A DNA stretch of 64,000 nt from Candidatus Kerfeldbacteria bacterium (GCA_016193315.1 JACPSJ010000001.1:91981-155980); one strand, 5' to 3'. Shown: positions 16,991 to 53,965, counted from the stretch's first letter. Notes: generated by a model from the sequence alone, not told the origin. A program made the numbers and translations.

Positions 16991-17000
16991 TACCTTTTCC

Positions 17001-28552: not shown

Positions 28553-29431
28553 CTAGAGATTGGCCGCAAAGAATTTTAACAACCTTTGGCGATACTCTGG
28601 ATCCAACTCCCCATGCGTCAGGTGTTGGGGGAACCAGAATTCAGCCTGGGCATTGTGGCGGAGTGCCGTTTGCAGGCGGCGGGCATGATCGAAGGGGATA
28701 ACCTCGTCGCGCTGGGAGTGGATGAGGAGAACTGGTTTAGTCAGACTCTTGGCGGCCCGAAGCGGTGATCTGACGGCTGGGTCAACTTCAAGGAAAACAC
28801 TGGCGTATCTGGCGGTCAGCCAGCCGAGCGGATACTTCAGAATCGGAAAACGGTAGAGCGCGTGGGCTAGGAGATCAAGCCGGGCGTAACTCGAATCCGC
28901 CACCGCGGCTTTGATCTCCGGCGACCGCGGCGCGATCATCAAGGCCACCGCCCCACCCATGGAGAACCCCCAGACGCCGACTTGGTCGATGCCACGCTGC
29001 CGGAGATAACGGATGGCCGCCACTAGATCTTCGGTTTCCCGCAGGCCGACCGTAGAAATGGCCCGTTCGCTTTGCCCCAGGCCGCGGAAATCAAAAAGCA
29101 GGAGGGCATACTGATCATGAAGAAACGCCAGAGACGGCAGGATGTCACCCTTGTCAGCTGGATAGCCATGGAGTCCGATGATCGTTTTGGGCTGGGTTCC
29201 CTCGCGGCCTGGGATGAACCAGCCGCGGAGCGTCAGTCCGTCGGCCGTGGCAAAGCTGACGTCTTCATAGTCCAGCCCCAGGTCCCGGGGCGTGCCGGTG
29301 GAGATAATTTTCTCCGGATGCGTGGCCGTGTATAGCCCGAGCAGGGGAATGACCACGAGCAAGAAAACAATAACGACTACGGTCACCAGCCAGGGATTGA
29401 GCGGTGTGGTCGTCGGCGAAAAAGCGGCCAT
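28553..29431 (-). CDS. membrane-anchored alpha/beta-hydrolase
   Basis: 292 aa. N-terminal TM; GxSxG nucleophile elbow (GFSMGG). Confidence 0.75.
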   Translation of the reverse strand: MAAFSPTTTPLNPWLVTVVVIVFLLVVIPLLGLYTATHPEKIISTGTPRDLGLDYEDVSFATADGLTLRGWFIPGREGTQPKTIIGLHGYPADKGDILPSLAFLHDQYALLLFDFRGLGQSERAISTVGLRETEDLVAAIRYLRQRGIDQVGVWGFSMGGAVALMIAPRSPEIKAAVADSSYARLDLLAHALYRFPILKYPLGWLTARYASVFLEVDPAVRSPLRAAKSLTKPVLLIHSQRDEVIPFDHARRLQTALRHNAQAEFWFPQHLTHGELDPEYRQRLLKFFAANL

Positions 29432-29688: not shown

Positions 29689-30858
29689 GTGGACGAACCG
29701 AAAGGCAGATTGCGCTCGGTTGACCCGCCACCAATCACTGGCCGCGAATCAACCACCGACCTTATCCGTCAGGCGATGGCGGCCGGGATCGGCCGCCAGT
29801 TCCGCGATTTCGTGGCCAGTCTCCAACTGTCGATCGATGAGGATCACACTCTGGTCTGGTCACTGGCCGGGATTGTATCAGTGGCTGGCTACACCCGCTC
29901 GTGTCTCATTCCGCTGATGCGGCGCGGGCTTATCCACGCCATCTCGACTACCGACGCCGTCGCCTATCATGATCTGCAAGGTTGGTGGCCGCGGTTCATG
30001 CCCGAGGCGGCCGAGGTCAAGCCCGGCGTGCCGGAGTTTTTCGAAGTTGACTCACGCGGCGACGATCGGGCGTATGCGGCCGACGGCATCGTCCGCGTTT
30101 ACGACATCGGCTTCGACGAAGGCCAGGGCTTGCTCGGGACCGACCGCGCGTTGATGCAGTTTGTGGAGAGGAACCGTGCTCTGCGAACAAACCTGACAAC
30201 CGCCGAGTTCTTCTGGCGTCTCGGTCAGGCCATGAAAGAAGTCGAGCTGGCCAATGGTCACGATCCGGCGGACAGCCCGAGTCTCCTGGTTCAGGCCCAT
30301 GTCCACCAGGTGCCGATTTTCTGCGGCGCGTTCTGGGATGGGTCGATCGGGCTCAACCTGGCTCGGTTCAACCTGTTCAATCCGCCGGGCCAGCAGGTGG
30401 TCATCGAGGGTGATCGTGATGTCCATCAGTTTGCCAGCCTGATGCATCAGACGATTGCAGTCGAAGGCCGCGGCATGACACTCGTCATCATGGGTGGCGG
30501 CGTCCCGAAGAACTACAGTCTGCAGATCGGTCCGTACCTGACCCAGATCTGCGGCTTGTCGGATGAGCTGCGGTACACGGCCGAACTTCAGATCTGCGAT
30601 GCGCCGGTGGACAATATGTCGCTGTCCTCGGCGCCGGCAGTCGAAGCTCTGACCTGGGGCAAGGTCCTCGAACGCACCCTGCCGCGAAACGTCTACGTTC
30701 GGGCTGACTGGTCGGTGTTGCTGCCAGTCTTGACTCAATCGCTGCTCGAGCAGGGGCGGCAGCTACCGGGTCGTCAGCTGTTCTTTACCCGTGAAGGCGC
30801 CCGCCAGGCGCTTGATCGGGCCATTCGTGAACGCGCCGAGGTTTCAGCCCCGGCCTAA
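29689..30858 (+). CDS. deoxyhypusine synthase family protein (DHS-like / homospermidine synthase-like)
   Basis: 389 aa. GTG start with RBS AAAGGAG. MGGGVPKN matches the DHS GGGxxK active-site region. Confidence 0.65.
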   Translation: MDEPKGRLRSVDPPPITGRESTTDLIRQAMAAGIGRQFRDFVASLQLSIDEDHTLVWSLAGIVSVAGYTRSCLIPLMRRGLIHAISTTDAVAYHDLQGWWPRFMPEAAEVKPGVPEFFEVDSRGDDRAYAADGIVRVYDIGFDEGQGLLGTDRALMQFVERNRALRTNLTTAEFFWRLGQAMKEVELANGHDPADSPSLLVQAHVHQVPIFCGAFWDGSIGLNLARFNLFNPPGQQVVIEGDRDVHQFASLMHQTIAVEGRGMTLVIMGGGVPKNYSLQIGPYLTQICGLSDELRYTAELQICDAPVDNMSLSSAPAVEALTWGKVLERTLPRNVYVRADWSVLLPVLTQSLLEQGRQLPGRQLFFTREGARQALDRAIRERAEVSAPA

Positions 30859-30977
30859 CACCCGCTCAGCCGAGTGGGTTTTTTCTACTCCAACCTTTGA
30901 CACTTCCCGATGGTGATGCTAGGATTCGTTATACCCAGTTCTTGACTGAACTGGTTTGTTTCACTGTCGCAAAGCCA

Positions 30978-32366
30978 ATGGCTCAATCTTCCCCACTCAA
31001 ACAAGCGATTGAGGAAATCTGCGAAGAGAAAAACATTCCCTACGACTCGGTCATTGAAACGATTGCCGCGGCTTTGGCCGTCGCGTATCGGAAAGACTTC
31101 GGCGAGAAAAACCAGAACATCGTGGTTGAATTCAAACCCGAGGATGGGACCAGCCGCGTTTTTGATGTCAAGAACGTAGTGGATGACAAGTTGTACGATG
31201 AGTTTTTGGCCGAACAGAAACTTCGCGAGCAAGCCGAAGCCGAAGATAAGCTGGCAGAATATCTCGAGCAGAAACGGCACGAGGAAGAGGCGAAGCGAAA
31301 TGAACTCGGCATCGCCGAAGGGCAGCCGATTCCGGAGGCGCTCCGCGATGAACGGTTTGATCCCAAAAAACATCTCAGCCAGACCGAAGCACAGAAACTT
31401 GATGTGGCATACAAAGTGGGTGATGAGATTCGGACCGAGCTTTTCCCGCCGGCGGCCTACGGGCGGATGGCCGCCCAGACCGCCAAGCAGGTCATCATTC
31501 AGCGCATCCGCGAAGCCGAACGCGACATCGTTTACAAAGAGTTCAAAGGCCGGGAGGGCGAAGTGGTGACCGCCATGGTCCAACGGGTCGAGGGACGAAT
31601 GGTGCTGATTGATCTCGGCCGTGCCACGGCCATCATGCCGCCGCCGGAGCAGATTCAACGCGAACATTATCGACCTGGCGACCGATTGAAGGTCTTTATC
31701 GCGGCCGTGGCCATGACGCCGAAAGGACCGGAGATTGTTGTTTCACGCAGTCATCCGGAGTTGGTCCGCAAACTCTTCACCGTGGAAGTGCCGGAGCTGC
31801 AAAGCGAATCAGTAGCAATCAAGGGCATTGCCCGCGAAGCCGGGCTGCGGACGAAGATCGCCGTCTGGTCGGAAGCGAAGAACATCGATCCGGTTGGGTC
31901 ACTCGTTGGCCAGCGCGGTACCCGCGTCCAAACGGTCATTTCCGAGCTCGGCGGCGAGAAAATCGATATCATTGAATGGAGTGATGACCCGGTCAAGTTC
32001 ATCAATAATGCTTTGTCACCGGCCAAGGTGATCTCCATTAAACTTGACCAGGACAGCCGGGCCGCAGTGGCGGAAGTCAAAGACGACCAGTTAAGCTTAG
32101 CCATCGGCAAGGCCGGTCAGAACGTCCGCCTGGCCGCCAAATTGAGCGGCTGGAAAATTGATTTGGTCGGCGAGAGCGGCGAGACGCCGAGGAGCGAACA
32201 ACCACCGACGGGAGCTGAGGCGACGGAAACGACCGGGACCGCTGCCACTTCACCTACCGGTGAGGCACCCGGAACGCCGCCCACCGAGGTTGCGCCCGTC
32301 CCCGAAGCTCCAGCCGAACCGCCGGCCCAGCCCGCCGAACAACCGCCACCAAGCGCGGCCACCTGA
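30978..32366 (+). CDS. nusA: transcription termination/antitermination factor NusA with an acidic/Pro-rich C-terminal tail
   Basis: ORF track 30897..32366. The internal ATG at 30978 gives a canonical NusA N-terminal domain. S1 and two KH domains are present (GQRGTRVQ, LAIGKAGQNVRLA). Confidence 0.85.
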   Translation: MAQSSPLKQAIEEICEEKNIPYDSVIETIAAALAVAYRKDFGEKNQNIVVEFKPEDGTSRVFDVKNVVDDKLYDEFLAEQKLREQAEAEDKLAEYLEQKRHEEEAKRNELGIAEGQPIPEALRDERFDPKKHLSQTEAQKLDVAYKVGDEIRTELFPPAAYGRMAAQTAKQVIIQRIREAERDIVYKEFKGREGEVVTAMVQRVEGRMVLIDLGRATAIMPPPEQIQREHYRPGDRLKVFIAAVAMTPKGPEIVVSRSHPELVRKLFTVEVPELQSESVAIKGIAREAGLRTKIAVWSEAKNIDPVGSLVGQRGTRVQTVISELGGEKIDIIEWSDDPVKFINNALSPAKVISIKLDQDSRAAVAEVKDDQLSLAIGKAGQNVRLAAKLSGWKIDLVGESGETPRSEQPPTGAEATETTGTAATSPTGEAPGTPPTEVAPVPEAPAEPPAQPAEQPPPSAAT

Positions 32367-32389: not shown

Positions 32390-34459
32390 ATGGGATTTCT
32401 TTACTTCGCCTTGGTCATCAGTGTCCTGGGGTTGTTCATGACCTGGATTCTGGCCCGAGTCGTCGGCCGGCAGGCGGCGGCCAGCGCCGCCATGGAAAAG
32501 GTGGCGGCGGCCATACGATCCGGGGCCGCGGCTTTTCTCAAACGCCAGTACACGACCATCAGCTGGATCGCCCTGGCAGTGGCCGCAGTTATTCTGCTCG
32601 CCTATCTGGCCAATGGCAAACCCTTGGTTGCCTGGCAGACTTCGATCTCGTTTTTGATCGGCGCGGCCGCGTCGGGCCTGGCCGGATACATGGGCATGTT
32701 CGTTTCCGTCCGGGCCAACGCCAAGGTGGCGGCCGCGGCCGATCGCCGCGATCTCAACAAAGCCCTGACCATTGCTCTACGGGGCGGGGCGGTCGAAGGC
32801 ATGCTCGTTTCGTCGTTGACGCTACTCGGCTTGGCCGCCCTGTTTTTGGTCTATTCGCAGTGGCTGCATTTCGACCCCCGCGCCATCCCCAGCGCCATCA
32901 TCGGTTTCGGGTTTGGCGCTTCGCTGGTCGCCCTTTTTGCCCAACTCGGCGGCGGCATTTACACCAAGGCGGCTGATGTCGGCGCCGATTTGGTAGGCAA
33001 AGTCGAAGCCGGCATCCCCGAAGACGATCCACGTAACCCGGCGGTCATTGCCGACTTGGTTGGGGATAACGTTGGCGATTGCGCTGGCCGCGGCGCTGAT
33101 TTGTTCGAGTCAACGGCTGCGGAAAACCTCGGCGCCATGATTCTCGGCGTGGCCCTGTTCCCGGCCTTTGGTTTGCCAGGCATCCTCTTCCCGCTGGTGG
33201 CCCAAGCTATCGGCATGATCGCTTCAGGCACGGCCGTCCTCACCGTCAGGGTCAAGAACAATGAGGATCCGATGAAGGCGCTCAATCGAGGTTTCTACCT
33301 GGCGGCTTTGCTCGGCGCCGTCGGCCTGTACGTCGTCACCCAGCTCATGCTCGGTGACCAGGCGCTGTGGTTCTTTGCCGCCGGCCTCGTTGGGATCGCC
33401 ATGAGCATCGTTTTCCTATTCTTGACGCAGTACTACACCGACCATGCCTATCGGCCAGTGAAAGACATCGCCCGCGCCAGCGAAACTGGTCCGGCCACCA
33501 CGATTATTTCTGGGCTGTCGGTCGGTTTTGAAAACGTGGCGCCGGCAGTGCTGGCCATTGGCGGGGCCTTGTGGGGCGCTTTCTCTCTTGGTGAGGCCAG
33601 TGGCCTAGAACACGGCGGTTTGTATGGCACGGCCGTGGCCACCATCGGCATGCTCATGACTGCCATGTATGTGTTGGCCATGGACACCTTCGGTCCGATC
33701 ACCGACAACGCCGGCGGGATAGTGGAAATGGCAAATGCCTCGGAAGAAACGCGGAAAATCACTGATCGACTCGATGCAGTTGGCAACACGACTAAAGCGT
33801 TGACCAAAGGCTACGCTGTTGGATCTGCCGCACTGGCTGCCTTTTTACTTTTTACTGCTTACCTCGAACAAGTCCACATCACCGTCGTCGACCTAGCTAA
33901 CATTAAAGTATTCATCGGTGCCTTCGTTGGTGCGATGCTGGTCTTCCTGTTCTCCAGTTCAGCCATGCGCGCCGTGGGTCGGACCGCGGGTTACATCATC
34001 GAGGAAGTCCGCCGACAGTTTCGGGACCAGCCGGGCATCATGGCCGGGACTGAGCAGCCTGACTACGGTCGAGCCGTTGACATCACCACCCGGGGGGCGC
34101 TGCGGAACATGGTGCTGCCAGGAACGATGGCTGTAGTGGTACCGATTCTTGTCGGTCTCATTCTCCGCGCCGAAGCCGCGGCTGGAATGCTGATGGTCGG
34201 CACCATCACCGGCGTCATCATGGCCCTGGTGATGAACAACGCTGGCGGCGCCTGGGATAATGCCAAGAAATTCATCGAATCCGGCGAGTTCAAAGACAGT
34301 CACGGCGTAGTCCAAGGCAAGAAGACTCCGGTTCATGCGGCGGCCGTGGTTGGCGATACCGTCGGTGATCCGTTTAAGGATACGGCCGGGCCGAGCTTGC
34401 ACGTGCTGATTAAATTGTTGGCGACACTGACCTTGGTCCTGGCGCCGCTGTTTACTTAA
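32390..34459 (+). CDS. hppA: membrane-bound proton-translocating pyrophosphatase (K+-independent type, Lys in GNTTKA)
   Basis: 689 aa. Multiple TM helices; signature GDNVGDCAGRGADLFES. Confidence 0.9.
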   Translation: MGFLYFALVISVLGLFMTWILARVVGRQAAASAAMEKVAAAIRSGAAAFLKRQYTTISWIALAVAAVILLAYLANGKPLVAWQTSISFLIGAAASGLAGYMGMFVSVRANAKVAAAADRRDLNKALTIALRGGAVEGMLVSSLTLLGLAALFLVYSQWLHFDPRAIPSAIIGFGFGASLVALFAQLGGGIYTKAADVGADLVGKVEAGIPEDDPRNPAVIADLVGDNVGDCAGRGADLFESTAAENLGAMILGVALFPAFGLPGILFPLVAQAIGMIASGTAVLTVRVKNNEDPMKALNRGFYLAALLGAVGLYVVTQLMLGDQALWFFAAGLVGIAMSIVFLFLTQYYTDHAYRPVKDIARASETGPATTIISGLSVGFENVAPAVLAIGGALWGAFSLGEASGLEHGGLYGTAVATIGMLMTAMYVLAMDTFGPITDNAGGIVEMANASEETRKITDRLDAVGNTTKALTKGYAVGSAALAAFLLFTAYLEQVHITVVDLANIKVFIGAFVGAMLVFLFSSSAMRAVGRTAGYIIEEVRRQFRDQPGIMAGTEQPDYGRAVDITTRGALRNMVLPGTMAVVVPILVGLILRAEAAAGMLMVGTITGVIMALVMNNAGGAWDNAKKFIESGEFKDSHGVVQGKKTPVHAAAVVGDTVGDPFKDTAGPSLHVLIKLLATLTLVLAPLFT

Positions 34460-34479: not shown

Positions 34480-35112
34480 ATGACGAGAAAAAATGATCCG
34501 TACAAACAAACAATCAACGTTTACGCCGAGCTTGGCGATACTTACCTCCGCGACATTGCTCACGCCGCCCCTCAGGAAATTGGCCAGTTTGCCCGCCTGA
34601 TCCGGAAACAGGGTCGGGTACTTGATGTGGGATGCGCCGGCGGTCGTGATTCGGCATTTTTCGTCAACCGCAGGTTTCGAGTCATCGGTATTGACTTGGT
34701 TGACAAATTCTTGCGCTTTGCAAGGAAAAAAGTGCCCGGTGCAACATTCAAGAGAATGGATGTTCGGCGACTCCGTTTTCGCCCCAACACGTTTGATGCC
34801 ATTTGGGCTAACGCGGTCCTCCTGCACCTCCATAAAAAAGACGTCCGGCAGGTCTTAAAGAAATTTTTTGTTATACTCAGGTTAAATGGGAAGCTGCACC
34901 TCCGTGTCAAACAGGGCCGAGGTCAACAGTACGGCCAAACGCGGGAACCCCTGGTCCAAGGAAAGCGTAGGTTGTTCACGTACTTTCAGCTCAAGGAGTT
35001 AGTCAAGTACGTAACGCAAGCAGGTTTTCAAATTCTCCGTTCAAAAATCTACCCCGATAACCTGGGGCGTCAAGATGTGAGGTGGGTCAGTATTTGGGCG
35101 GAAAAGCACTAG
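34480..35112 (+). CDS. class I SAM-dependent methyltransferase
   Basis: 210 aa. Motif I VLDVGCAGGRDS. Confidence 0.7.
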   Translation: MTRKNDPYKQTINVYAELGDTYLRDIAHAAPQEIGQFARLIRKQGRVLDVGCAGGRDSAFFVNRRFRVIGIDLVDKFLRFARKKVPGATFKRMDVRRLRFRPNTFDAIWANAVLLHLHKKDVRQVLKKFFVILRLNGKLHLRVKQGRGQQYGQTREPLVQGKRRLFTYFQLKELVKYVTQAGFQILRSKIYPDNLGRQDVRWVSIWAEKH

Positions 35113-35190
35113 GATGTTTTTTACCGCACGGCCAGTCCTGGTCCGTATCATCGAGTCGCTTTCAGACAACCGGCCTGGTTTATCAACACG

Positions 35191-35892
35191 ATGAAGAACG
35201 GTGATCAACATCTGATCGGCAAACACCTCCTCGTCTGCGCGGCTCATCCAGACGACGAGAGCTTTTGCGCCAGCGGCACCTTGATGAAAAACCGGCGGGC
35301 CGGCGGTACGACCACCGTCGTTTGCGCTACCGCCGGTGAAAAGGGAATGTCGCACCTCAGGCGCCCGGTCACGCCGGCAGCATTGAAGCAGATCAGGATT
35401 CGTGAACTACGCGGTGTGTGTCGGTATCTCGGCGTTCGCTCACTTCACGTCCTCAATTACCCTGACGGCGGGCTGACGAAACATCTCAACGGCATCGCCC
35501 AGAAACTACTGGCTGTGGCCCGAAAGGTCAAGCCGGACGCGCTGGTAGGGTTCGGCCCGGACGGCTGGACCGGCCACCGCGACCACGCCACCATGTTCCG
35601 CGCCGGGCGAAGAGTAGCCAGCCGGCTCAAGTTGCCCTACTTCGCTTTTTGTATTCCCCCGCTAGTGGCCGCAGACATGAAAAAGTGGATGCTCACCCGC
35701 CGCCGCTCGCCGCACTATCATCGACACGTGACTAACAATTTGCCAACCGTGCGGGTAGCCATCAGGGGAGCCGACAAGATCCGTGCTCTCCGTTTCCACG
35801 CTTCACAGCTCGATGGCCGTCACCCCTTCACCGGCATCCCCAAACACCTGGCCGAAGCTACGTTGCGGGCCGAGTACTTTGCGGAGTGGTGA
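35191..35892 (+). CDS. PIG-L/LmbE family N-acetylglucosaminyl deacetylase
   Basis: 233 aa. HPDDE motif (AAHPDDESF). Confidence 0.75.
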   Translation: MKNGDQHLIGKHLLVCAAHPDDESFCASGTLMKNRRAGGTTTVVCATAGEKGMSHLRRPVTPAALKQIRIRELRGVCRYLGVRSLHVLNYPDGGLTKHLNGIAQKLLAVARKVKPDALVGFGPDGWTGHRDHATMFRAGRRVASRLKLPYFAFCIPPLVAADMKKWMLTRRRSPHYHRHVTNNLPTVRVAIRGADKIRALRFHASQLDGRHPFTGIPKHLAEATLRAEYFAEW

Positions 35893-36017
35893 TTTTCTGT
35901 TGACCGACCCACTCGTAACTCCGCCACCACCCCGCGAATCTCGCTCCGCTCGCTTCGTCCCCCTCCTGAATTCAGGAGGGGGGCGCCGTTGAGCGATGGC
36001 GAAACGGCGCGGGGTGG

Positions 36018-36386
36018 TCAGAGCGCTATACCAGTCACCACCTGATGCAATCTCTCGAGCACGTTATCCAACTCGTTCATGACCTCACTGTTGGTGAACC
36101 GGATGACGGTAATATCGAGGGATTCGAGAAACCGCTGTCGGTACAGGTCGTAGCGCTGGCGACGATGTTCATAGTGCTGTCCGCCGTCGATCTCGATCGC
36201 CAAACGGTAGGACGGGCAATAAAAATCGATAATGTATCGGCCGATACCGTGCTGTCGACGGAACTTCAAACCATTGAATTGCTTCTTCCGCAAATAATGC
36301 CAAAGGCGGAGTTCAGCTTCAGTCGCCGAATTCCGTAATTGTTGGCGCAGTCTTTTGTAATACTGGAAATTATACAAAACGGGCAT
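36018..36386 (-). CDS. DUF559 domain protein (Vsr-like endonuclease fold)
   Basis: 122 aa. YIIDFYCPSYRLAIEIDGGQH is the typical DUF559 core. Confidence 0.7.
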   Translation of the reverse strand: MPVLYNFQYYKRLRQQLRNSATEAELRLWHYLRKKQFNGLKFRRQHGIGRYIIDFYCPSYRLAIEIDGGQHYEHRRQRYDLYRQRFLESLDITVIRFTNSEVMNELDNVLERLHQVVTGIAL

Positions 36387-36498
36387 GGATTCTTGGCTGC
36401 CATGCCACCCTGGTTAGGATAATAGTTTTTCGATATTCGTCAAGAAACCGTGAAGCTTTTGTCGACGGGCCGGAGGACGGAAAAAGAAAACAGCCGCG

Positions 36499-37056
36499 TT
36501 AGCGGCTGGGGTGGGAACGATCTGGCTCAGACCAGAGACTGAGCGGCAGGACTTCCTCGACCACGTACGTCGGACCGACCTGGGGGCCATAGGCAGTGTA
36601 ACCCTCGATTCTGTATCCCGACCGAGCCCAGTAGTGGGGTTCGACATAAGGCGCCAGGCGTTTGTACATTATACGTCCGGCAAAGGGGTTTGGACTGGGA
36701 CTGGACATATCGCCGTCGATCACGAAGTGGTGGTTGCTGACACTCGGTGGCAAGAATGGATTGGGGAACCCCAACTTGGGATCGTACCCGGCCGCCCCGG
36801 AAGGAATCGCGAAGTTCAATTCTTCAGCATCAGTCGGGAAATCGCCCCGAACCAGAGCGAACCTCCGAGCCGCGTCGACCGCAGCATAGGTCTGCTGGCG
36901 GGCGGTCTCGAAGGCTTGCTGGCGGCTGCGTTCGGCGCCGTCTGTCTTGAGCGCGTGGCCGACAAAGACAAATAAGCAGATGGCAGCGATCAGAGCCAGA
37001 GGGAGCCAGCCGAAAAAGTGACTCAACGGATGAATCGACTCCTGGGAGCCAGTCAT
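36499..37056 (-). CDS. hypothetical membrane-anchored protein (start trimmed to MTGSQES, which has RBS AAGGAG)
   Basis: ORF track 36499..37119. The ATG at 37056 is preceded by AAGGAGTAGCAAG. Single TM (FFGWLPLALIAAICLFVFVG). Confidence 0.45.
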   Translation of the reverse strand: MTGSQESIHPLSHFFGWLPLALIAAICLFVFVGHALKTDGAERSRQQAFETARQQTYAAVDAARRFALVRGDFPTDAEELNFAIPSGAAGYDPKLGFPNPFLPPSVSNHHFVIDGDMSSPSPNPFAGRIMYKRLAPYVEPHYWARSGYRIEGYTAYGPQVGPTYVVEEVLPLSLWSEPDRSHPSR

Positions 37057-37225
37057 CTTGCTACTCCTTGTCTTGAGTGGTTGAAAAGCACCACGAATGG
37101 GGGAGCGATGCCGCAGCATTCAAAGAGCAGACTCTAATCGCGGCTGAGCGGAGCTAAACATACTGCCTGGCGGCTGTCAACGGCATTGCTGACGCGGCGA
37201 TGACATCTTGCTGTATACTGTACGC

Positions 37226-38530
37226 ATGCCCGTTTACCGCGTTCTCGGCCGCACGCTGCTGCCATTTCTGCGCTGGCGGATTTCTCGCCTGGGAGGTGAA
37301 AACAATGTCCCCCGCGGCGGATTCATTGTCGTGGCCAACCACCAAAGCTGGATCGACTCGGCCATCGTGGCCGCGGCCCTGTCTAAACACATTGATCAAT
37401 CATTCCGCTTTGTCGCCCAGTCGAGCAAATACCGTTTTCTAGGCGGCATTCCGATCAACGAATATGACAAGAGCAAGGTCATTGACGTGGCCGCCGGTTA
37501 TCTACGCGTCGGGCACCCGATTATCATTTTTCCGGAAGGCAATAGCAACCGCAACCCCGAACTGCGCGGCGGCAAGACCGGCGCCGCCCGATTGGCGTTA
37601 AAAAGCGGCGCGCCAGTGTTGCCGATCGGCATCCATGGCACCCAGGGCATCAAAGCCTGGCAATCGATGCTCTGGTTTTTCAGTTTTTGGAAACCGTGCG
37701 CGGTTACCATCGGCCCACCCGTAAGTTTTCCGCGACAAGACCTTCGACCGCAAGACCACGAACGGCTGATGGCCGTTACTGATGACATCATGCGGCAGAT
37801 TAGCGCCGTATCCGGCAAACCATTGGCTGAACGCCCGTCCGAAGAACCGTTGCCGATTCATCAGCCCTGGCTGCGAACAATCCTCCACCGTTTCATCTAC
37901 CCGATGAATCGCTGGCGGGTTGAAGTGCATGGCCAAGAACATCTGCCTCGGGCCGGCCCGTTCATAGTGGCGGCCAATCACCTCAGCTATTACGACGCAC
38001 CGGCGCTATCGATCGCGGTTTTGAAAACTCGTGGTCTCCAGCCGTTTTACCCAACCAAAGCTGCGGTGGCCGCGGCTTTCAAAGCCATCGTCGGTCAAGG
38101 TGGGCTCGACGCTCTCGGCATGCTGCCGCTTGATGAACGAGATCGGACCAAGGTCTTGCGCTTTTCCGAGCGTCATCTCAAGTCCGGCGGCGTGATCGGC
38201 ATCTTCCCTGAGGGGACGCGCAACAAGCCAAAGATCAACCCAAACTACCCGCATGAAATGCTGCCAGGCAAGACTGGTGCAGCACGACTGTTCTTGGCGA
38301 CCAGGGCGCCAATTATCCCGGCGGCGATCGAGGCCCCAGAAGGGTTATCAGTCTGGAAATCCGCATTCAGCGTCATCGCTTTCTGGAAAAAGATGCGCGT
38401 TACGTTCGGTCCGCCGGTGGAGTTTGATCGGCTGACATCTGGTGAACCGACCAAAGACGACTTGACCACTATGACCCGGACCATCATGCAAGTGATCAGC
38501 CGGATATCTGGTCAATCGTATCCGTACTAA
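37226..38530 (+). CDS. tandem-duplicated lysophospholipid acyltransferase (two PlsC/LPLAT domains fused)
   Basis: ORF track 37208 (TTG); ATG at 37226. Two HX4D motifs (NHQSWID, NHLSYYD), each followed by a FPEG motif. Confidence 0.7.
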   Translation: MPVYRVLGRTLLPFLRWRISRLGGENNVPRGGFIVVANHQSWIDSAIVAAALSKHIDQSFRFVAQSSKYRFLGGIPINEYDKSKVIDVAAGYLRVGHPIIIFPEGNSNRNPELRGGKTGAARLALKSGAPVLPIGIHGTQGIKAWQSMLWFFSFWKPCAVTIGPPVSFPRQDLRPQDHERLMAVTDDIMRQISAVSGKPLAERPSEEPLPIHQPWLRTILHRFIYPMNRWRVEVHGQEHLPRAGPFIVAANHLSYYDAPALSIAVLKTRGLQPFYPTKAAVAAAFKAIVGQGGLDALGMLPLDERDRTKVLRFSERHLKSGGVIGIFPEGTRNKPKINPNYPHEMLPGKTGAARLFLATRAPIIPAAIEAPEGLSVWKSAFSVIAFWKKMRVTFGPPVEFDRLTSGEPTKDDLTTMTRTIMQVISRISGQSYPY

Positions 38531-38531
38531 C

Positions 38532-39146
38532 GTGGCAGCCAAACAGCTCGTTTACCAAACCCTGAGAAGAATCGGTTACCCGCTCTTCGGTCAAAAGCTT
38601 TCCAACGTCCAGGGGGCGGAGAACCTGCCGGGCGCTGGCGGCTACCTCATCGCCGCTAATCACGTCGACTTTCTTGATGGCTTCTACATTTCCGCGGCGG
38701 TCGGCCTAGCGCGCAACGTGCCGGTTTATTTCCTGACCGCCTCAAACAATTACTGGTGGACGACGGTCGCGGTTCAGATCAAGGCCGACCGCCGCGGCGC
38801 GATCATTGATCAGGCAGTTCGCGCCCTCACCGACGGCAAAGTGATTTGTAATTTTATCGAAGGCCAACGCAATCCGGCGACCAAACTCTTGGCTGGCAGG
38901 ACCGGGACGGTCCGGATGGCACTGACCGCGGGGGTGCCGATCGTCCCATTGGGTATCGCTTGCTCGGCCGGAAAGAATGTGGGACAATCGCTGATGTACT
39001 TAATGTCAAAGAATCATCACGTGACCATCAAGATTGGACGGCCGATCCGACTACCGGCGGCCGATCAGCCAGAGGACAATGATTTGCGGCGATACACTCA
39101 CCAAGTAATGCACGCGATCGCGCCCCTAGCCGGTAAGAAGATTTAG
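38532..39146 (+). CDS. 1-acyl-sn-glycerol-3-phosphate acyltransferase family protein (third LPLAT domain)
   Basis: 204 aa. GTG start. NHVDFLD and FIEGQRN motifs. Confidence 0.7.
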   Translation: MAAKQLVYQTLRRIGYPLFGQKLSNVQGAENLPGAGGYLIAANHVDFLDGFYISAAVGLARNVPVYFLTASNNYWWTTVAVQIKADRRGAIIDQAVRALTDGKVICNFIEGQRNPATKLLAGRTGTVRMALTAGVPIVPLGIACSAGKNVGQSLMYLMSKNHHVTIKIGRPIRLPAADQPEDNDLRRYTHQVMHAIAPLAGKKI

Positions 39147-39148
39147 CG

Positions 39149-40606
39149 ATGTATCTCGATTGGCAAAAAGTATCCCGCCTGCCGCGGGCAGAGCAGCAAG
39201 ATCTGCAGAACCAGAAAGTTCGCTGGTTCTTTCGGCACAAGCTGCCGTACTCGCCGTATTACCGTAGGTTGCTGGAGAAACTCCAGCTGTCATGGTCGGA
39301 CTTCAAGACCACCGATGATATACAGAAACTGCCGCTGACGTCGAAGGCCGACATCGCTCCCACTGTGGAAGATCGGGCTCGGCCGCGCCAGTTCATCCTC
39401 CAACCGGACGAACACCTGATCAAGAAACACGCTACCAAAGGGGAATTACTCCAGCTGGTCGGCATGAAAATCCGCAAACTGGACGCCAAAGCCGTATTGG
39501 AGAAAGAGTACAAACCGGTGCATATACACTTCACCACCGGCCGAACCGCGTTGCCAACGCCGTTTACTTACTCCACCTATGATTTGATGCTGCTCCGCGA
39601 AACCGGTCGGCGGTTGTTCAATGTCGCTGGCCTGTCCCGCGACAATGTTGGCCTCAACGCCTTCCCCTACTCGCCGCACCTCGGTTTCTGGCTGGCCTAC
39701 TACGGTTTCCTTGAAGCCGGCATCACTGCCCTGGCCACCGGCGGCGGTAAGATCATGGGCACGCAGAAGATCATGGACTCACTGGAGCGCTTGAAAGTCA
39801 ATGCCATGGCCATCATTCCCGGCTACTGCTATCACTTGCTGCGGGAGGCAGTCAAGCAGCGGCGAGACTTCTCAAATCTGAAATACATTTTCTTCGGCGC
39901 CGAGCGCGTCAGCCCGGCCTTCCGCGAAAAAGTTAAGGAGTTGCTTCGGCACGTCGGTGCCAGCGAAGTCAGCATCCAAGCCACCTATGCATCGACCGAG
40001 TTCAAAACCGCCTGGATTCAGTGCGCCGAACACACCGGCTACCATCTATATCCAGACCTGGAGTTTGTTGAGCTGGTGGACGAAGACGGCCGGCGAGTCA
40101 AAGAAGATGAAAGCGGCGAAGTTGTTTACACCGCGCTTGATTGGCGCGGCACGGTCGTCGTTCGGTACCGGACCGGTGATCTGGCGCAAGGCATCGAATA
40201 CACGGCCTGCCCCAACTGCGGCCGGACCGTGCCGCGCATTCTGCCGGACATTCAGCGCCGCTCAGACATGAAAGAGTTTCATCTGACGAAAATCAAGGGC
40301 GAACTCGTCAACCTGAACAACGTTTTCCCGATCATGTCGGGGATCAAGGGGCTCGACGAGTGGCAGCTTGTCATCCGCAAAAAGAACAACGACCCGCACG
40401 ATCTCGATGAGTTGGTAGTCCACGTGTCCGCCAAGGAAGGCGCAGCCTTCAATCAAGTTCGGTCGGAGGTCGAGAAGAAGATGCGCGATGAGATGCAAGT
40501 TGGCGTGATGGTTGAGGAGAAGACGACTGAGGAGTTGATTGGGAGTTTGGGGATGGAGACGGAGCTGAAGGAGAAAAGAATTCTAGATAGTCGCCCGAAG
40601 CAGTAA
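39149..40606 (+). CDS. PaaK-like / coenzyme F390 synthetase-like adenylate-forming enzyme
   Basis: 485 aa. Degenerate P-loop HFTTGRTALPTP; the overall layout resembles the phenylacetate-CoA ligase family. Confidence 0.55.
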   Translation: MYLDWQKVSRLPRAEQQDLQNQKVRWFFRHKLPYSPYYRRLLEKLQLSWSDFKTTDDIQKLPLTSKADIAPTVEDRARPRQFILQPDEHLIKKHATKGELLQLVGMKIRKLDAKAVLEKEYKPVHIHFTTGRTALPTPFTYSTYDLMLLRETGRRLFNVAGLSRDNVGLNAFPYSPHLGFWLAYYGFLEAGITALATGGGKIMGTQKIMDSLERLKVNAMAIIPGYCYHLLREAVKQRRDFSNLKYIFFGAERVSPAFREKVKELLRHVGASEVSIQATYASTEFKTAWIQCAEHTGYHLYPDLEFVELVDEDGRRVKEDESGEVVYTALDWRGTVVVRYRTGDLAQGIEYTACPNCGRTVPRILPDIQRRSDMKEFHLTKIKGELVNLNNVFPIMSGIKGLDEWQLVIRKKNNDPHDLDELVVHVSAKEGAAFNQVRSEVEKKMRDEMQVGVMVEEKTTEELIGSLGMETELKEKRILDSRPKQ

Positions 40607-41079
40607 TGTCCGCCGCTACATCGAAATATGATGGTCAAGTAGAAACCGTTGTTGGTGTGCTTATCGTCGATGAAGACGGGAGAATCCTACTCATCCAGTC
40701 CCCCAAATGGAGCGACAAAAGTCTGTTCCCGGGCGGGCACGTGGAGTATGGAGAATCGATTTTGGAGGCGGCGAAACGGGAGGGCGAGGAAGAAACTGGT
40801 TTGAAACTCGAACCGAACTATGTTGTGAACGTTGGAGAAAACATTCATAATCCCAGTTTCGAACGACCAGCACATTTCCTCTTCATTCATGTAGTTTGTC
40901 GGGCCCTGACGACTCAGCTTAGTTTGAATAGTGAACTGAGTCGGTTTGAGTTGGTTGTTCCTGAGGAAGCCCTCAAACGCAATCTCGAGGCGGGTGCCCG
41001 GAAGTCGATCGAAAACTATCAACGCGGCGTTCGCTATGGCATTAGTTCTCACCAATGGCCACAAAAATCGGAGCACTAG
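40606..41079 (+). CDS. Nudix hydrolase
   Basis: 157 aa. Nudix box GGHVEYGESILEAAKREGEEETGL. Start overlaps the previous stop (TAATG). Confidence 0.8.
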   Translation: MSAATSKYDGQVETVVGVLIVDEDGRILLIQSPKWSDKSLFPGGHVEYGESILEAAKREGEEETGLKLEPNYVVNVGENIHNPSFERPAHFLFIHVVCRALTTQLSLNSELSRFELVVPEEALKRNLEAGARKSIENYQRGVRYGISSHQWPQKSEH

Positions 41080-41313
41080 GTGATAGACTTGGTACTAGGC
41101 ACAGAGCTAAATGGAAGTGCGACAGCGGGCAGCCGCCCCACGACCTACCGGTTGGCGACCGCTGTGGCTCGCCTGTACACTATCGGTTGACTCTACCTAT
41201 GAGCATTGCCAAACGGCTAATGAAGGAAAGCGAATTGTCGGTCGAAGAAAAACCCAAACGGGCCCGGCAGATCAAAGCTTGACGCATTATTATAACCGTA
41301 TTATAATACCGTC

Positions 41314-41553
41314 ATGGCTCAAAAAGTGCTCCAAATCGGTTCGTCGGTCGGGGTAACGATCCCCAAGGGGTCACTCCGAACGCTCGGTCTCAAAGTTGGC
41401 GACCAAGTCAGGCTTGATGTCGATGAGAATCGGAAAACTGTGACCATCCGCCCAACAAAATCAGAATCTGGCGAGGACGGAACAATCGCCAAGCTCACAC
41501 TTCGGTTTATCAATCGGTATCGTTCTGACCTTTTGGCGTTGGCCAAGAAATAA
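41314..41553 (+). CDS. AbrB/MazE-fold (SpoVT-AbrB domain) antitoxin
   Basis: 79 aa. LQIGSSVGVTIPKGSLRTLGLKVGDQVRLDVDENRKTVTIRP is a swapped-hairpin AbrB-type domain. Adjacent to Doc. Confidence 0.7.
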   Translation: MAQKVLQIGSSVGVTIPKGSLRTLGLKVGDQVRLDVDENRKTVTIRPTKSESGEDGTIAKLTLRFINRYRSDLLALAKK

Positions 41554-41946
41554 GTGCGCTACTTGACCATCGTGCACCTGTTGAAGATGCACTCATTTGT
41601 TATTGACGAAACAGGGGGCTTGCATGGCATTAGGGACCGGGGTCGTTTGTCTAGTGCGGTAGAACGCCCTCAACAAACGGCCTTTGGTCGGGAACTCTAT
41701 CCCACTATTCTTGAAAAAGCGGCTGTCTACATTCATTCGATCATCGGCGACCATCCCTTCGTCGATGGCAATAAGCGAACCGCCATGGCAGCGGCGTTTG
41801 TTTTTCTTCAGACTAATCATTTCACGTCAACGGCTGTTCGGGGCGAGATCGAACAATTCGCACTTCGCGTGGCCCGAATGAAACTGAACGTTCCGGTGAT
41901 TGCTTCTTGGCTCAGAAAGCATACTCGGAAGGCGAGAACACTGTGA
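41554..41946 (+). CDS. doc: Doc (death-on-curing) Fic-family toxin
   Basis: 130 aa. HPFVDGNKRTA is the Doc variant of the Fic motif. Confidence 0.8.
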   Translation: MRYLTIVHLLKMHSFVIDETGGLHGIRDRGRLSSAVERPQQTAFGRELYPTILEKAAVYIHSIIGDHPFVDGNKRTAMAAAFVFLQTNHFTSTAVRGEIEQFALRVARMKLNVPVIASWLRKHTRKARTL

Positions 41947-42143: not shown

Positions 42144-43670
42144 TCAATCGTGGTAGATGACTCGATTCCAATCCCGCCATAGGTCTTCGCTTGGTCGACC
42201 GCGAACCGATAAGTCGGCCGCCAACGGAAACTCCATGTGGTTGTAGCCGAACTGGGCGTAGCCAATGATCCACGGCCGGTTGGCGATGGCGCGGAAATAG
42301 GCCTGGATGACGCGGGCTTGGTCATCGGGGCTAAAGGCGTACTGGCTGTTTTTTAAGTCGGCCTCGGGCCCGCCGTACCACGGAACCGAGGCGATGTCAT
42401 AGAACGAGTTCCCCCGCCAGGTTTCCTTGACGTTGAAGTAGGTGGTGCGGACGAAGACTGGCTTCCCGTACCGATCATAGAGTTTCTTCGGTCCGGCCAG
42501 CACCCGCTCCGCGCCGGCTAGGAGCTCGTCGTCGGTCGGGTTGCTCGTGCTGGCGATCGGGGCGTCGATGGCGATGTAGAAGTAGTCGAGTTCGTCAGCC
42601 CAGGTGATATACGTCCCATCGGGAACCACCCCGCCTCCGGCCCCGCTCCAAACCATCTCGCCGACTTGTCCGCGGAAATGTTCGCGGATGGCTTTGAAGA
42701 CCGCGCGCCAACGGGCGTCCGCGTCCGGCGCCTGGTAGTCGGTGTTGACCGCATAATGGATCGCCTCAACGCCAGCGCGTTCAGCTAGCTGGGCGAAGTG
42801 CACAAGAAAGTTGGTGATTTCAGAAAAATACGAGTCCCACCACCCGGCCGGGCGGTTTTGGGTGGAAATGACCGTGCAACAGTGTTGTGGTTGGAGCATT
42901 ACTTTCAATCCCCGCCGTTTGAAAGCCGAGATTTCTTCCAACAGTTTGTCGTCGCTCGGGTAGTTCGGCGCTTCGGGATACTGATTGACGATTTTTGGCA
43001 ACCCATTCTCCTCAACCATCTGCCACGGCGGGTCGACCTCGACCCAGCGGTAGCCCAGGTCGGCCAGGCGCTCGGCTGTCTGGTCGAAGGTGTAGTCGAA
43101 GGCCAGGGTGTAGAAGTCTTCAATCACCTGCCCGGACCGGAATTCGGTGCCGTTGAGTCGCGGCAAGAATTCGCCGACCGGTTCTAGGTCGCTGGTCCGG
43201 TCGATCGTCACGCCGCCAGGCGGAAACCAGCGCCAGCGGGTGACCGCGTCTCGCTGAACTTTGTCCCTGGCAAACGTCGCTTGTCGTCCGCGCTCGGTCC
43301 AGAAATAGTCACCGGTGTCTGGTTCGAGGTACTCGGCGGCGCGGAAGTCATAACCATTCCGGGTGTAGCGGTACTTGATGGTCTGCGCTGAGCCTTCGAG
43401 CTGGAGCTGTTCGCGGGTGAGGGTCAGGCGGAATTTCCTGGGACCGACGCGCGGCATTGGGAAAGGACTTTGGGCGTAAAGGTGGATGGTGTCGCTGCTT
43501 GGGGTATTGTCTGGGACCGTTACTTCAAAGGTCATCGAGTCCTTAGTTTGCCTCTGGTTCGAAGGTGAACCACCCGAGAAGTTCCGCGTCAGCGACCAGG
43601 TTGCGGCGCCGGCGGCAATCAACAAGACCAGGGCGGCGAGGACGGTGACTGTTGGACGAGACGTTAGCAC
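42144..43670 (-). CDS. membrane-anchored putative glycoside hydrolase-like (TIM-barrel) protein
   Basis: 508 aa. GTG start; N-terminal TM. The C-terminal half has a GH-like pattern of conserved acidic/aromatic residues. Low-specificity call. Confidence 0.4.
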   Translation of the reverse strand: MLTSRPTVTVLAALVLLIAAGAATWSLTRNFSGGSPSNQRQTKDSMTFEVTVPDNTPSSDTIHLYAQSPFPMPRVGPRKFRLTLTREQLQLEGSAQTIKYRYTRNGYDFRAAEYLEPDTGDYFWTERGRQATFARDKVQRDAVTRWRWFPPGGVTIDRTSDLEPVGEFLPRLNGTEFRSGQVIEDFYTLAFDYTFDQTAERLADLGYRWVEVDPPWQMVEENGLPKIVNQYPEAPNYPSDDKLLEEISAFKRRGLKVMLQPQHCCTVISTQNRPAGWWDSYFSEITNFLVHFAQLAERAGVEAIHYAVNTDYQAPDADARWRAVFKAIREHFRGQVGEMVWSGAGGGVVPDGTYITWADELDYFYIAIDAPIASTSNPTDDELLAGAERVLAGPKKLYDRYGKPVFVRTTYFNVKETWRGNSFYDIASVPWYGGPEADLKNSQYAFSPDDQARVIQAYFRAIANRPWIIGYAQFGYNHMEFPLAADLSVRGRPSEDLWRDWNRVIYHD

Positions 43671-47205: not shown

Positions 47206-48498
47206 ATGAAGATCGAAGTTGCACCGCAACCAAAGTCAACCGTCAAGCTAACTGTCGAGTTGAGTCCGGATGAAATGAAGCCGCACCTTGAACGCGCAGC
47301 CGAAGTCTTATCGAAAGGGCATCAGATCGAAGGTTTTCGCCCGGGCAAAGCCAGCCTCGGCATTGTCCTTCAACGTCTCGGTGCCCAAGCAGTGTGGGAG
47401 GAAGCGGCCGAGCAGGCGGTCCGGAAATCATATGCTCAGGCAGTGAAGCAGCACGGTTTACAGACCGTCGGCCCGCCGAAGATTTCTGTTCACAAGTTAG
47501 CGCCGGATAACCCCTTCGTCTATCATGCCGAAATCGCCGTGCTACCGGAGATTGTCGTCGGGAACTACCGCGAGCTCAAGGTCAAGCGCGCGGCCGTCGA
47601 AGTCAAACCCGAACAGGTCGATCGCGCCGTGGCTGATCTGCAGTCGATGTTCGCCAAAGAAGTATTGGTTGATCGACCGGCCCAGCGGGGAGACAAGATT
47701 GAGATCGACTTTGATCTGGCGGTCGGCCACGTGCCCGTTGAAGGCGGATCGAGCAAGCAGCACCCGGTCGTGATCGGCTCTGGTCACTTCATTCCTGGTT
47801 TTGAAGACCAGCTCATCGGCCTCAGGAAAGAAGAGCGCAAAGAATTCACCCTGACCTTTCCATCGGACTACAAAAACCGTCAGGTGGCCGGCCAGCAAGG
47901 GACATTCAAAGTCATGGCCAAGGCAGTTTACCAGATCGACCAACCTCAGCTCAATGATGATTTTGCTAAACGCGCCAGCAAACAACAAACGCTTAACGAT
48001 CTGCGCCAGCAACTCGAGCGTAATCTGCGCGACGAGGCGGCTCAGAAAAACGAGCGGATCTTCGAACGAGCGATCGTCGATGAACTAATCACCAAGTCGA
48101 AATTCAGCGAATTGCCGGAGGTGCTCGTTGACCACGAGGTGACGAAGATGCTCAATGAACTGCAGGAAGAAGTGGAGCGCCGCGGCGGGGCGAAGTTCGA
48201 CGATTATCTCCAGGGGTTGAAGAAAACAACCGCGAGCCTGAAATTGGAGTTTCGCCCCCAAGCCGAGCATCGCGTGAAATCAGCACTGCTCTTGCGGCAG
48301 ATCGCCAAACGGGAGAACATTACGGCCACCACCGAGGAAGTCGAGCAGGAAGTCAAACAGGCGTTACAGATGTACACCCGCTACCCCGAATTGAGATCGC
48401 AAATCGAGTCAGATGACTATCGTGATTTCGCCCGGGTGATGTTGACCAATCGGCAGGTCGTCGCCCGGCTCAAGAAGTTAGCGCTCGGTCAAACATAA
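47206..48498 (+). CDS. tig: trigger factor
   Basis: ORF track 46972..48498. The internal ATG at 47206 (MKIEVAPQPKSTVKLTVEL) is the canonical trigger-factor N-terminus. PPIase-like middle domain and C-terminal arms present. Confidence 0.85.
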   Translation: MKIEVAPQPKSTVKLTVELSPDEMKPHLERAAEVLSKGHQIEGFRPGKASLGIVLQRLGAQAVWEEAAEQAVRKSYAQAVKQHGLQTVGPPKISVHKLAPDNPFVYHAEIAVLPEIVVGNYRELKVKRAAVEVKPEQVDRAVADLQSMFAKEVLVDRPAQRGDKIEIDFDLAVGHVPVEGGSSKQHPVVIGSGHFIPGFEDQLIGLRKEERKEFTLTFPSDYKNRQVAGQQGTFKVMAKAVYQIDQPQLNDDFAKRASKQQTLNDLRQQLERNLRDEAAQKNERIFERAIVDELITKSKFSELPEVLVDHEVTKMLNELQEEVERRGGAKFDDYLQGLKKTTASLKLEFRPQAEHRVKSALLLRQIAKRENITATTEEVEQEVKQALQMYTRYPELRSQIESDDYRDFARVMLTNRQVVARLKKLALGQT

Positions 48499-50476: not shown

Positions 50477-51102
50477 AGTGGTGGCAGAGTTCGAAAGGTT
50501 GGTGGTGGCTGGGCGCCACACTTGGAGTATGGTGCGTCCTAATACTATTTACCCCCTGGCCAACCCAAGTTCTCGGACTGCCATTGACGGTTGGTGAAAC
50601 TCCAGGCTCGGCTGATGTCATCATCGTGTTGGGTGCGGGGACACGTCGCGGTCCGGTGTCTCTCCCAGTTCAGGCGATGGATCGTCTGCGGCAGGCCAAG
50701 CGGCTGTGGGATCAAGACCTGGCGCCGCTGGTGATTGTGGCCGGGGGATTCAGCCGCCGTACGCACCAAGCCGAATCAAGATACATGAAGCCGTACCTAA
50801 CCTCACTTGGTGTGCCCAACGAGTCCATCATCGAAGAAAACCAATCGCTGGATACTTACCAAAACGCCATCAACAGCCAACGTCTCATGGAAGCCAACCG
50901 TTGGGATACGGCCCTGGTCGTGACTAGCAGTTATCATACCTGGCGCAGCTGTCGAGTTTTCCGGGCCCTCAGGGTGGACATCGTTTGTGTGGCCGCGTCG
51001 CTTGACGACCATGATTCGGTATACGAACGACTGATAAACTTTCGTTCGGTGGTGCGAGAATATGGGGCGATCGTTTATTACTGGTTACGCGGATATCTGT
51101 AA
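50473..51102 (+). CDS. DUF218 (YdcF/SanA/ElyC-like) domain protein
   Basis: 209 aa. N-terminal TM; IIVLGAG...VIVAGG pattern of DUF218. ATGA overlap with nfo. Confidence 0.6.
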   Translation: MKWWQSSKGWWWLGATLGVWCVLILFTPWPTQVLGLPLTVGETPGSADVIIVLGAGTRRGPVSLPVQAMDRLRQAKRLWDQDLAPLVIVAGGFSRRTHQAESRYMKPYLTSLGVPNESIIEENQSLDTYQNAINSQRLMEANRWDTALVVTSSYHTWRSCRVFRALRVDIVCVAASLDDHDSVYERLINFRSVVREYGAIVYYWLRGYL

Positions 51103-53763: not shown

Positions 53764-53820
53764 AGGCCTGAATGCGGGAGTAGTTTCCGGCGAAGCCGGA
53801 TCCGGCTTCGCCGGACAGCA

Positions 53821-53965
<145 letters not shown>

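Follow-up and report, generated by a model that had tools for sequence, protein, structure and literature searches.

The window analysed here is a 64,000-nucleotide (nt) stretch of Candidatus Kerfeldbacteria bacterium (GCA_016193315.1 JACPSJ010000001.1:91981-155980) that carries, on the + strand at 37208-41079, four tightly packed open reading frames (ORFs) whose junctions measure 1-2 nt or overlap. The first gene, encoding a fused lysophospholipid acyltransferase (LPLAT) with two domains, A and B, occupies 37226-38530 (+) and is followed by a single-domain LPLAT of type C (38532-39146, +), a PaaK-fold adenylate-forming enzyme, hereafter ANL (39149-40606, +), and a Nudix hydrolase (40606-41079, +). 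Read in the sequence, the A-B/LPLAT C junction is TAA-c-GTG (38528-38534), with a 1-nt gap; the LPLAT C/ANL junction is TAG-cg-ATG (39144-39151), with a 2-nt gap; and the ANL and Nudix genes overlap in TAATG (40604-40608). Such spacing or overlap implies co-translation among the LPLAT, ANL and Nudix genes, with the Nudix gene predicted to be translationally coupled to the ANL via TAATG. The original prediction, which had described this arrangement accurately, counted the cluster from 37208; the frame is open there, from a TTG, but the fused LPLAT probably starts at ATG 37226 (434 aa), which is preferred because the translation from this codon agrees exactly with the deposited protein P0271 and the N-termini of homologues fit as well.

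Pfam annotation of the four proteins matched three PF01553 domains, PF00501 and PF00293, as had been anticipated. The fused LPLAT scores 151.9 bits over two PF01553 domains (E = 1.1e-44; Pfam cutoff 23), domain A forming its N-terminal part (~37226-37861, +) and domain B its C-terminal part (~37862-38530, +). Both expected HX4D motifs are present, HQSWID at residue 45 and HLSYYD at residue 258, accompanied by FPEG at residues 108 and 333. The third predicted domain, in LPLAT C, reaches 66.4 bits against the same cutoff (E = 2.8e-18) and carries HVDFLD and FIEGQR, FIEG being its block III. Modelled with AlphaFold2 (AF2; pLDDT 81.8), the fused protein comprises two LPLAT folds with a low-confidence, disordered linker between them, and Foldseek ranked its relatives in the order T. 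maritima PlsC (TmPlsC, 5kym), GPAT1, plant GPAT, PatA and LpxM. TmPlsC (5KYM) is also the sole PDB sequence match of the LPLATs. LPLAT C aligns with it from residue 42 onwards and LPLAT A from residue 66, and the domains span ~210 aa; part of the N-terminal membrane-anchoring region of PlsC thus seems to be missing. A hydropathy search of the LPLATs and the ANL revealed no transmembrane anchor. The LPLATs have an isoelectric point of ~10, and soluble, basic proteins of this kind would suit peripheral binding to anionic membranes.

To place the cluster in a wider setting, 70 loci, referred to below by L numbers, were collected by an ANL search with one genome per species, and their six-frame ORFs were searched with the proteins of the window. 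On the PlsC model TIGR00530 the three LPLAT domains score 49.8, 53.8 and 46.8 bits, below the trusted cutoff of 102.95, and models of the LPLAT part of Aas-type enzymes give 43-56 bits per domain, on par with the PlsC model. The Aas equivalogs are not reached, the domains scoring 26-56 bits (NF005959, cutoff 886; NF006386, cutoff 1221). By these scores, A, B and C appear to be members of the LPLAT superfamily nearest PlsC and Aas that do not pass as PlsC equivalogs. The proposal of an unusual multi-acylated or amino-acyl lipid of the ornithine type is not supported: the OlsA models NF052552 and NF052553 (cutoff 300) give at most 19 bits for domains A and B, do not match C, and give at most 31 bits for the fused protein. 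An OlsB N-acyltransferase was seen neither in the Pfam annotation of neighbouring genes in the window nor in the gene clusters conserved across the 70 loci. Ornithine-lipid (OlsA/OlsB) synthesis was rejected on these model scores and the missing partner gene.

The three LPLAT domains are mutually 26-30% identical and are paralogues. Where the ANL of a locus is at least 59% identical to that of the window, they fall into three orthogroups that always run A-B-C; more distant genomes have two copies or one. The A and B domains are separate genes in most relatives, and their fusion is limited to the clade of the window itself, amounting to ~63 protein clusters. Type C forms a tight cluster of 33 members that adjoins the ANL and includes the sole LPLAT of two loci (L027 and L035). 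The number of LPLAT domains, which had been taken as a peculiarity of this operon, therefore reflects tandem duplication of one ANL-linked LPLAT, present in 1-3 copies in relatives, and the three domains are the end point of that duplication plus one gene fusion. HX4D and (F/I)xEG blocks are kept within all three orthogroups. At the substrate-binding blocks the orthogroups diverge, block II of LPLAT B containing an insert, so any acceptor lipid proposed for them would be putative.

The ANL matches PF00501 at 46.6 bits (cutoff 29.9; E = 2.9e-12) and also carries AMP-binding_C_2; by sequence, the PDB entries most similar to it are PaaK-type ligases (4r1l, 1.4e-25). Its AF2 model (pLDDT 73.7) is closest in Foldseek to BT_0428, PaaK1 and 2-hydroxyisobutyryl-CoA ligase (HCL), with a TM-score of ~0.68 (query-normalised) at 21-24% identity. 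Among NCBIfam models the top match is FlxY (NF053551; 144.9 bits, cutoff 520), followed by a haloarchaeal PaaK (NF041878; 133.2 bits, cutoff 700), the PaaK model TIGR02155 (108.3 bits, cutoff 646) and F390 synthetase (50 bits, cutoff 459); no curated equivalog cutoff is reached, and the Aas models NF005959 and NF006386 are unmatched. The expectation that this protein is not a bona fide phenylacetate-CoA ligase is thus supported, and a PaaK of aromatic catabolism was rejected on equivalog scores far under cutoff and on the lack of adjacent paa genes. A 445-aa protein encoded 13 kb away (25074-26411, +) shows weak BoxB/PaaA-like di-iron similarity (59 and 31 bits; cutoffs 499 and 280); it appears to be a distant di-iron homologue only and gives no evidence of phenylacetate catabolism.

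Motifs A3, A5, A7, A8 and A10 of the ANL read TTGRTALPT, YASTE, RYRTGD, KGELVNLN and ELKEKR and are invariant among ten sequences. The PaaK-like fold that had been predicted is confirmed, but the supposed degeneration of its P-loop is not, since HFTTGRTALPT, in place of the SSGTTGKPT of PaaK, is invariant in the family; it would be a conserved family variant rather than a sign of decay. A further invariant segment, NAFPYSPHLxFW, aligns with SYGYGLFTGG of PaaK, which we take to line the acyl pocket. An insertion of ~45 residues (~residues 75-122), predicted to form three helices, has no PaaK counterpart. Among 1.84 billion library representatives clustered at 50% identity, the ANL has 132 matches at E ≤ 1e-30, of which a few dozen are full-length matches at ~37% identity or above through the insertion. 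The ANL is 100% identical to a protein from a Candidatus Kerfeldbacteria assembly, and Patescibacteria contribute more than 100 further clusters at 59-82% identity. Taken together, these features point to a small, distinct PaaK-fold subfamily. In a Pfam scan for fusions of the ANL with an acyl carrier protein (ACP) or LPLAT domain, nine representatives with a long extension at the N- or C-terminus, plus P0121, showed no additional domain.

Across 44 loci, the ANL has a median identity to the window of 59%, compared with 58% for NusA, 52% for endonuclease IV, 47% for the pyrophosphatase, 42% for trigger factor and 34-35% for the LPLATs. Constraint at the level of NusA would fit a central function for the ANL, and the LPLATs, unlike the ANL, are fast-evolving.

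Pairing of the ANL with LPLATs was counted over the 58 loci with at least 1.5 kb of upstream sequence, the LPLAT being sought within 3.5 kb on the same strand. One to three LPLAT genes lie upstream of the ANL on the same strand in 46 of the 58, directly adjacent in 40 of those 46. In every paired locus the ANL is at least 54% identical to that of the window, and none of the 12 loci with an ANL of at most 52% identity has an upstream LPLAT. A pyrophosphatase gene immediately precedes the LPLAT block in 30 of the 58 loci. The wider syntenic block runs methyltransferase, YraN-like, NusA, pyrophosphatase, one to three LPLATs, ANL, then patatin and a CarS-like gene where present, trigger factor, endonuclease IV and DUF218. 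Patatin (PF01734, 1.2e-15) directly follows the ANL in 5 loci, and a CarS-like cytidylyltransferase (PF01864, 3e-30) is present in 15, mostly just past the ANL or patatin. The pairing and these lipid-enzyme neighbours in relatives therefore make a role in lipid acylation or remodelling, beyond that of a lone plsC as had been suggested, well founded.

Both of these lipid genes are found outside the present window, with examples at L027 6389-6940 and L029 7437-8333. The CarS-like protein is a homologue of archaeal CDP-archaeol synthase, odd among ester-lipid genes, and may replace CdsA. Taxon labels for many of the loci, which are TPA_asm metagenome-assembled genomes (MAGs), look wrong: this concerns L002-L004, L006, L008, L017, L018, L021, L024, L034, L040, L041, L054, L057 and L061, and also L027. 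Records entitled 'uncultured Gammaproteobacteria bacterium' and one 'Pirellulales' record have Patescibacteria gene order and ANLs 54-79% identical to that of the window. Taxon labels of records with Patescibacteria gene order were treated as unreliable.

The window keeps the same frame, with a 2.7-kb insertion before the LPLATs and ~6 kb of genes after the ANL. Its NusA gene (30897-32366) forms the upstream flank, followed by a membrane ion-translocating pyrophosphatase (32390-34459, +; NF001953, 993 bits, cutoff 783), and trigger factor (47206-48498), endonuclease IV (49631-50476) and DUF218 (50473-51102) form the downstream flank. Despite both rearrangements the LPLAT-ANL core remains packed to 1-2 nt, which argues for the core as a selected unit. 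The Nudix hydrolase stands apart from this core. Its assignment is secure as predicted, with PF00293 at 74.7 bits (cutoff 21.1; E = 9.1e-21) and an intact box in which GX5EX7REUXEEXGU reads GHVEYGESILEAAKREGEEETGL; no NCBIfam equivalog is reached, and the PDB matches are generic Nudix proteins. The Nudix gene follows the ANL in only three close relatives (L003, L008 and L009), and in L043 the Nudix protein encoded two genes upstream of the ANL is not matched by that of the window at E ≤ 1e-5. Its inclusion as an integral part of the module was rejected on the three-locus count, and we regard the gene as a lineage-specific add-on, apparently a recent, clade-specific passenger.

We propose, with moderate confidence, that Patescibacteria share a conserved module for salvaging and acylating membrane lipids, split-Aas-like or FadD-PlsC-like in organisation, and that the locus is its Kerfeldbacteria version. 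A fatty acid as the substrate of the ANL, the acyl acceptor, and the lipid that each LPLAT would acylate are inferences. The ANL would adenylate a scavenged free fatty acid, converting fatty acid and ATP to acyl-AMP and pyrophosphate (PPi), and would then load the acyl group on a thiol carrier, for which coenzyme A (CoA) is the likeliest candidate. Working at the inner membrane face, LPLATs A, B and C would use the activated group to acylate glycerol-3-phosphate, lysophosphatidate and/or scavenged lysophospholipids. Removal of PPi would fall to the pyrophosphatase encoded just upstream in most relatives, whose functional link to the cluster is presumed from this position. In some relatives, patatin could supply fatty acids and lysolipids, and the CarS-like CTP-transferase could perform the next step past phosphatidate.

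Patescibacteria, ultra-small, host-dependent bacteria also known as the Candidate Phyla Radiation (CPR), make up a large share of bacterial diversity and show no recognisable fatty-acid synthesis, and the Kerfeldbacteria group has been reported to be without fatty-acid synthesis. CPR lipids are fatty-acid-based and unusually lysolipid-rich, and there is no complete lipid synthesis pathway; no enzymes making or needing ACP were detected in the CPR genomes examined, and the acyl-donor source for CPR acyltransferases of the PlsY/PlsC type is unexplained (PMC7242380). For individual Patescibacteria genomes, lipid acquisition and envelope formation have been called unclear (PMC12281837, PMC5220378). 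In a Patescibacteria genome, salvage or re-acylation of scavenged lipid parts is the simplest reading. We found no description of an ANL-LPLAT module in CPR in the full-text literature, a search whose coverage leaves out most subscription journals. The description that suits the locus best is that of a conserved and as yet undescribed variant, in Patescibacteria, of the scheme in which a scavenged fatty acid is activated and then used for re-acylation, here with a PaaK-fold ligase at its base. The locus would provide candidate genes for the CPR acyl-donor step that are compact and conserved, with the ANL under housekeeping-level constraint. If correct, the salvage reading would account for the way in which fatty acids and lysolipids taken from the host become membrane in these symbionts, and it would add a long-chain-acyl branch to the PaaK-fold ligases.

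Several observations weigh against the salvage reading. The flanks of the module (NusA on one side, trigger factor and endonuclease IV on the other) are syntenic too, and the conservation of gene order is thus in part general lineage synteny. Solved PaaK-fold relatives all use aryl or short branched acids, and none is a known long-chain fatty-acid ligase. The LPLATs do not conserve the arginine that typifies block II of PlsC, and in LPLAT A block III is the non-canonical EGNSN, without the arginine of EGxR; the acceptors may accordingly be non-classical. A phmmer search of low sensitivity, made with a single E. coli ACP query, matched no ACP-like ORF in the window or the 70 loci (ORFs of 50 aa or longer). 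DPANN and Asgard homologues of the ANL, finally, have no LPLAT neighbours.

The distant homologues themselves carry different partners. In L045 (6397-8588), where the ANL is 51% identical, the genes after it encode an alpha-oxoamine synthase of the BioF/Kbl family (TIGR00858, 432 bits, cutoff 426) and an SDR reductase; in L044 (10459-11646) an alpha-oxoamine synthase lies a few genes from the ANL; and in L048 (5175-8141) an alpha/beta hydrolase precedes the ANL and an alpha-oxoamine synthase follows it. The ANL homologues linked to alpha-oxoamine synthases are 48-51% identical to that of the window. Alpha-oxoamine synthases take acyl-CoA or acyl-ACP donors, and this use of thioester donors favours a thioester-forming ANL acting on an aliphatic acid. 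The layout of these three loci also recalls sphingoid-base or amino-lipid synthesis. Archaeal members of the ANL subfamily, insertion included, are 35-49% identical; in L059, L060, L064 and L070 (Bathyarchaeota, Asgard and unclassified archaeal MAGs) the ANL gene precedes one or two genes for alpha/beta-hydrolase-like proteins with a membrane anchor, most of them without a Pfam match, and the ANL also occurs in two Woesearchaeota loci (L046 and L069). The archaeal ANLs have no LPLAT in their vicinity, and the family is therefore not everywhere tied to ester-lipid acylation. The theme shared by the distant loci, one in favour of the salvage reading, is a hydrolase followed by acid activation and acyl transfer.

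Among the other explanations, specialised lipid decoration, which comes close to the original prediction and which we consider unlikely, would have the ANL activate a non-fatty carboxylate (an aryl, hydroxy or amino acid) and the LPLATs link that group, or additional acyl chains, to a lipid or envelope anchor, in an ApeH/ApeD-, FlxY- or OlsA-like manner. The ranking of FlxY as the best NCBIfam match of the ANL (145 bits), with PaaK models next, accords with it, as do the aryl or short acids used by all solved ANL relatives and the non-canonical block III of LPLAT A. In aryl-polyene (APE) clusters, too, the LPLAT ApeD occurs together with ApeH, an acyl-ACP synthetase that does not depend on CoA, and ApeG, predicted to be a membrane pyrophosphatase (PMC8253772). 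The FlxY score is, however, far under the cutoff of 520, the PaaK pocket motif is swapped for the invariant NAFPYSPHLxFW, and the OlsA models remain at or below 19 bits per domain. By the single-query ACP search and the clustering of neighbours, neither the window nor any of the 70 loci has an ACP, ketosynthase, reductase or dehydratase, and the conserved neighbours are bulk phospholipid enzymes (patatin, CarS-like). In genomes of ~0.9 Mb, an ANL as conserved as a housekeeping protein is better explained by a core function than by decoration.

It is also rather improbable, in our estimate, that the genes are unlinked neighbours, the LPLATs being ordinary PlsC paralogues with another donor, the ANL an unrelated catabolic CoA ligase or enzyme of protein or cofactor modification, and their adjacency inherited synteny. 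The whole block from NusA through pyrophosphatase, LPLAT, ANL and trigger factor to endonuclease IV is syntenic, as this explanation would have it, the ANL homologues of at most 52% identity in CPR and archaea have no LPLAT neighbour, and the Nudix gene and the 34480-37119 insertion show unrelated genes entering the region. Yet LPLAT-ANL adjacency outlasts displacement of the pyrophosphatase and trigger factor, as in the window, LPLAT copy number varies at this site only, and two more lipid genes were inserted exactly here in other genomes. The 1-2 nt spacing or overlap, implying co-translation, likewise speaks against unlinked genes.

In direct channelling without CoA or ACP, which we find doubtful, the ANL would make acyl-AMP, or acylate itself or a partner in a LuxE-like manner, and the acyl group would pass straight to the LPLATs. 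In the form to which we give similarly little credence, a CoA- and ACP-free route, acyl-adenylate would go straight to soluble LPLATs with PPi recycled by the neighbouring pyrophosphatase. That ACP-related enzymes were undetected in the CPR genomes examined (PMC7242380), and that the single-query phmmer search returned no ACP-like ORF near the module, would be in keeping with such a route. The family-specific three-helix insertion could serve docking, the ANL always has LPLAT C as its neighbour, with a 2-nt gap in the window, and ApeH is a precedent for a starter-unit ANL bypassing CoA (PMC8253772). The distant ANLs beside alpha-oxoamine synthases, users of thioester donors, count against it. 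The C-terminal subdomain with the invariant ELKEKR lysines is retained, a feature that does not separate thioester-forming from adenylate-only enzymes. We also know of no LPLAT that uses acyl-AMP. Were the CoA- and ACP-free route correct, it would be the missing acyl-donor step for CPR membranes made from scavenged fatty acids and lysolipids, and relatives of the ANL might act similarly in DPANN and Asgard archaea.

Around the proposed salvage module, the window contains further genes. The inserted 2.7-kb block between the pyrophosphatase and the LPLATs (34480-37119, mixed strands) encodes a methyltransferase (S-adenosylmethionine type, +), a PIG-L/LmbE deacetylase (BshB/MshB-like, +), a DUF559 endonuclease-like protein (-) and an unknown protein with a single transmembrane segment (-). 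These genes are not at this position in most related loci, and the block is probably not part of the module. The ~6 kb separating the ANL from trigger factor holds the Nudix gene, a mazE/doc pair and a GH113-like protein. Nothing convincing as an operon-delimiting promoter or terminator was detected upstream of 37226 or past 41079. The one strong promoter-like site, at 41279-41307 (TTGACG-17-TATAAT, near-consensus) belongs to the downstream mazE/doc pair (41314-41946, +), in which a MazE-type antitoxin (PF04014) is followed by a Fic/Doc toxin (PF02661), the antitoxin stop abutting the toxin start. The GH113-like glycoside hydrolase (42144-43670, -) is membrane-anchored and a candidate surface protein, as is a 788-aa protein with BNR/Sortilin-Vps10 repeats and an N-terminal hydrophobic segment (59943-62309, +).

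Further from the cluster, the window encodes a DAGK_cat/YegS-type lipid kinase (14536-15276, -), a DedA/VTT-domain protein (57362-57991, -) and two alpha/beta hydrolases of the Hydrolase_4 type (17255-18088, +; 28553-29431, -), all of which could share in a salvage physiology. Just upstream of NusA lies a member of the deoxyhypusine-synthase family (29689-30858, +; PF01916, 1.6e-34), a family unusual in a bacterium. The window has two stretches of low GC (0.47-0.48 versus ~0.57 elsewhere), and with them coincide two tRNA clusters, Arg-Ala-Ala at 16284-17073 and Cys-Gly-Leu at 53647-54134.

The closest known systems are Aas and the Chlamydia pair CT775 (an LPLAT) and CT776 AasC (an acyl-ACP synthase), which re-acylates scavenged lysophospholipids in a reduced, host-dependent genome (PMC5693948). 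As in Aas and CT775+CT776, an LPLAT is genetically coupled to an adenylate-forming enzyme (46 of 58 loci), with a putative fatty-acid specificity here. Unlike Aas, the activator in the window is PaaK-fold with a 45-residue insertion rather than of the FadD/AasS type, three LPLAT paralogues are present instead of one, and neither an ACP (by the single-query search) nor an LplT-type transporter is seen near the module. The LPLATs share with PlsC (TmPlsC, 5KYM) the fold and the HX4D and (F/I)xEG blocks, but their domains, at 47-54 bits on TIGR00530, fall short of 102.95, and the block II arginine is not conserved. With the PaaK-fold ligases BT_0428, HCL, NatL2 and AjiA1 the ANL has in common the two-domain fold and motifs A3, A5, A7, A8 and A10; it departs from PaaK in its 21-24% identity, the replaced pocket motif, the extra three-helix insertion and the lack of adjacent paa genes. 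Like aryl-polyene and flexirubin clusters (PMC8253772), the locus combines an ANL with at least one LPLAT and a protein of the membrane-pyrophosphatase type; unlike them, it is without ACPs, ketosynthases, reductases, dehydratases and Lol/RND export genes.

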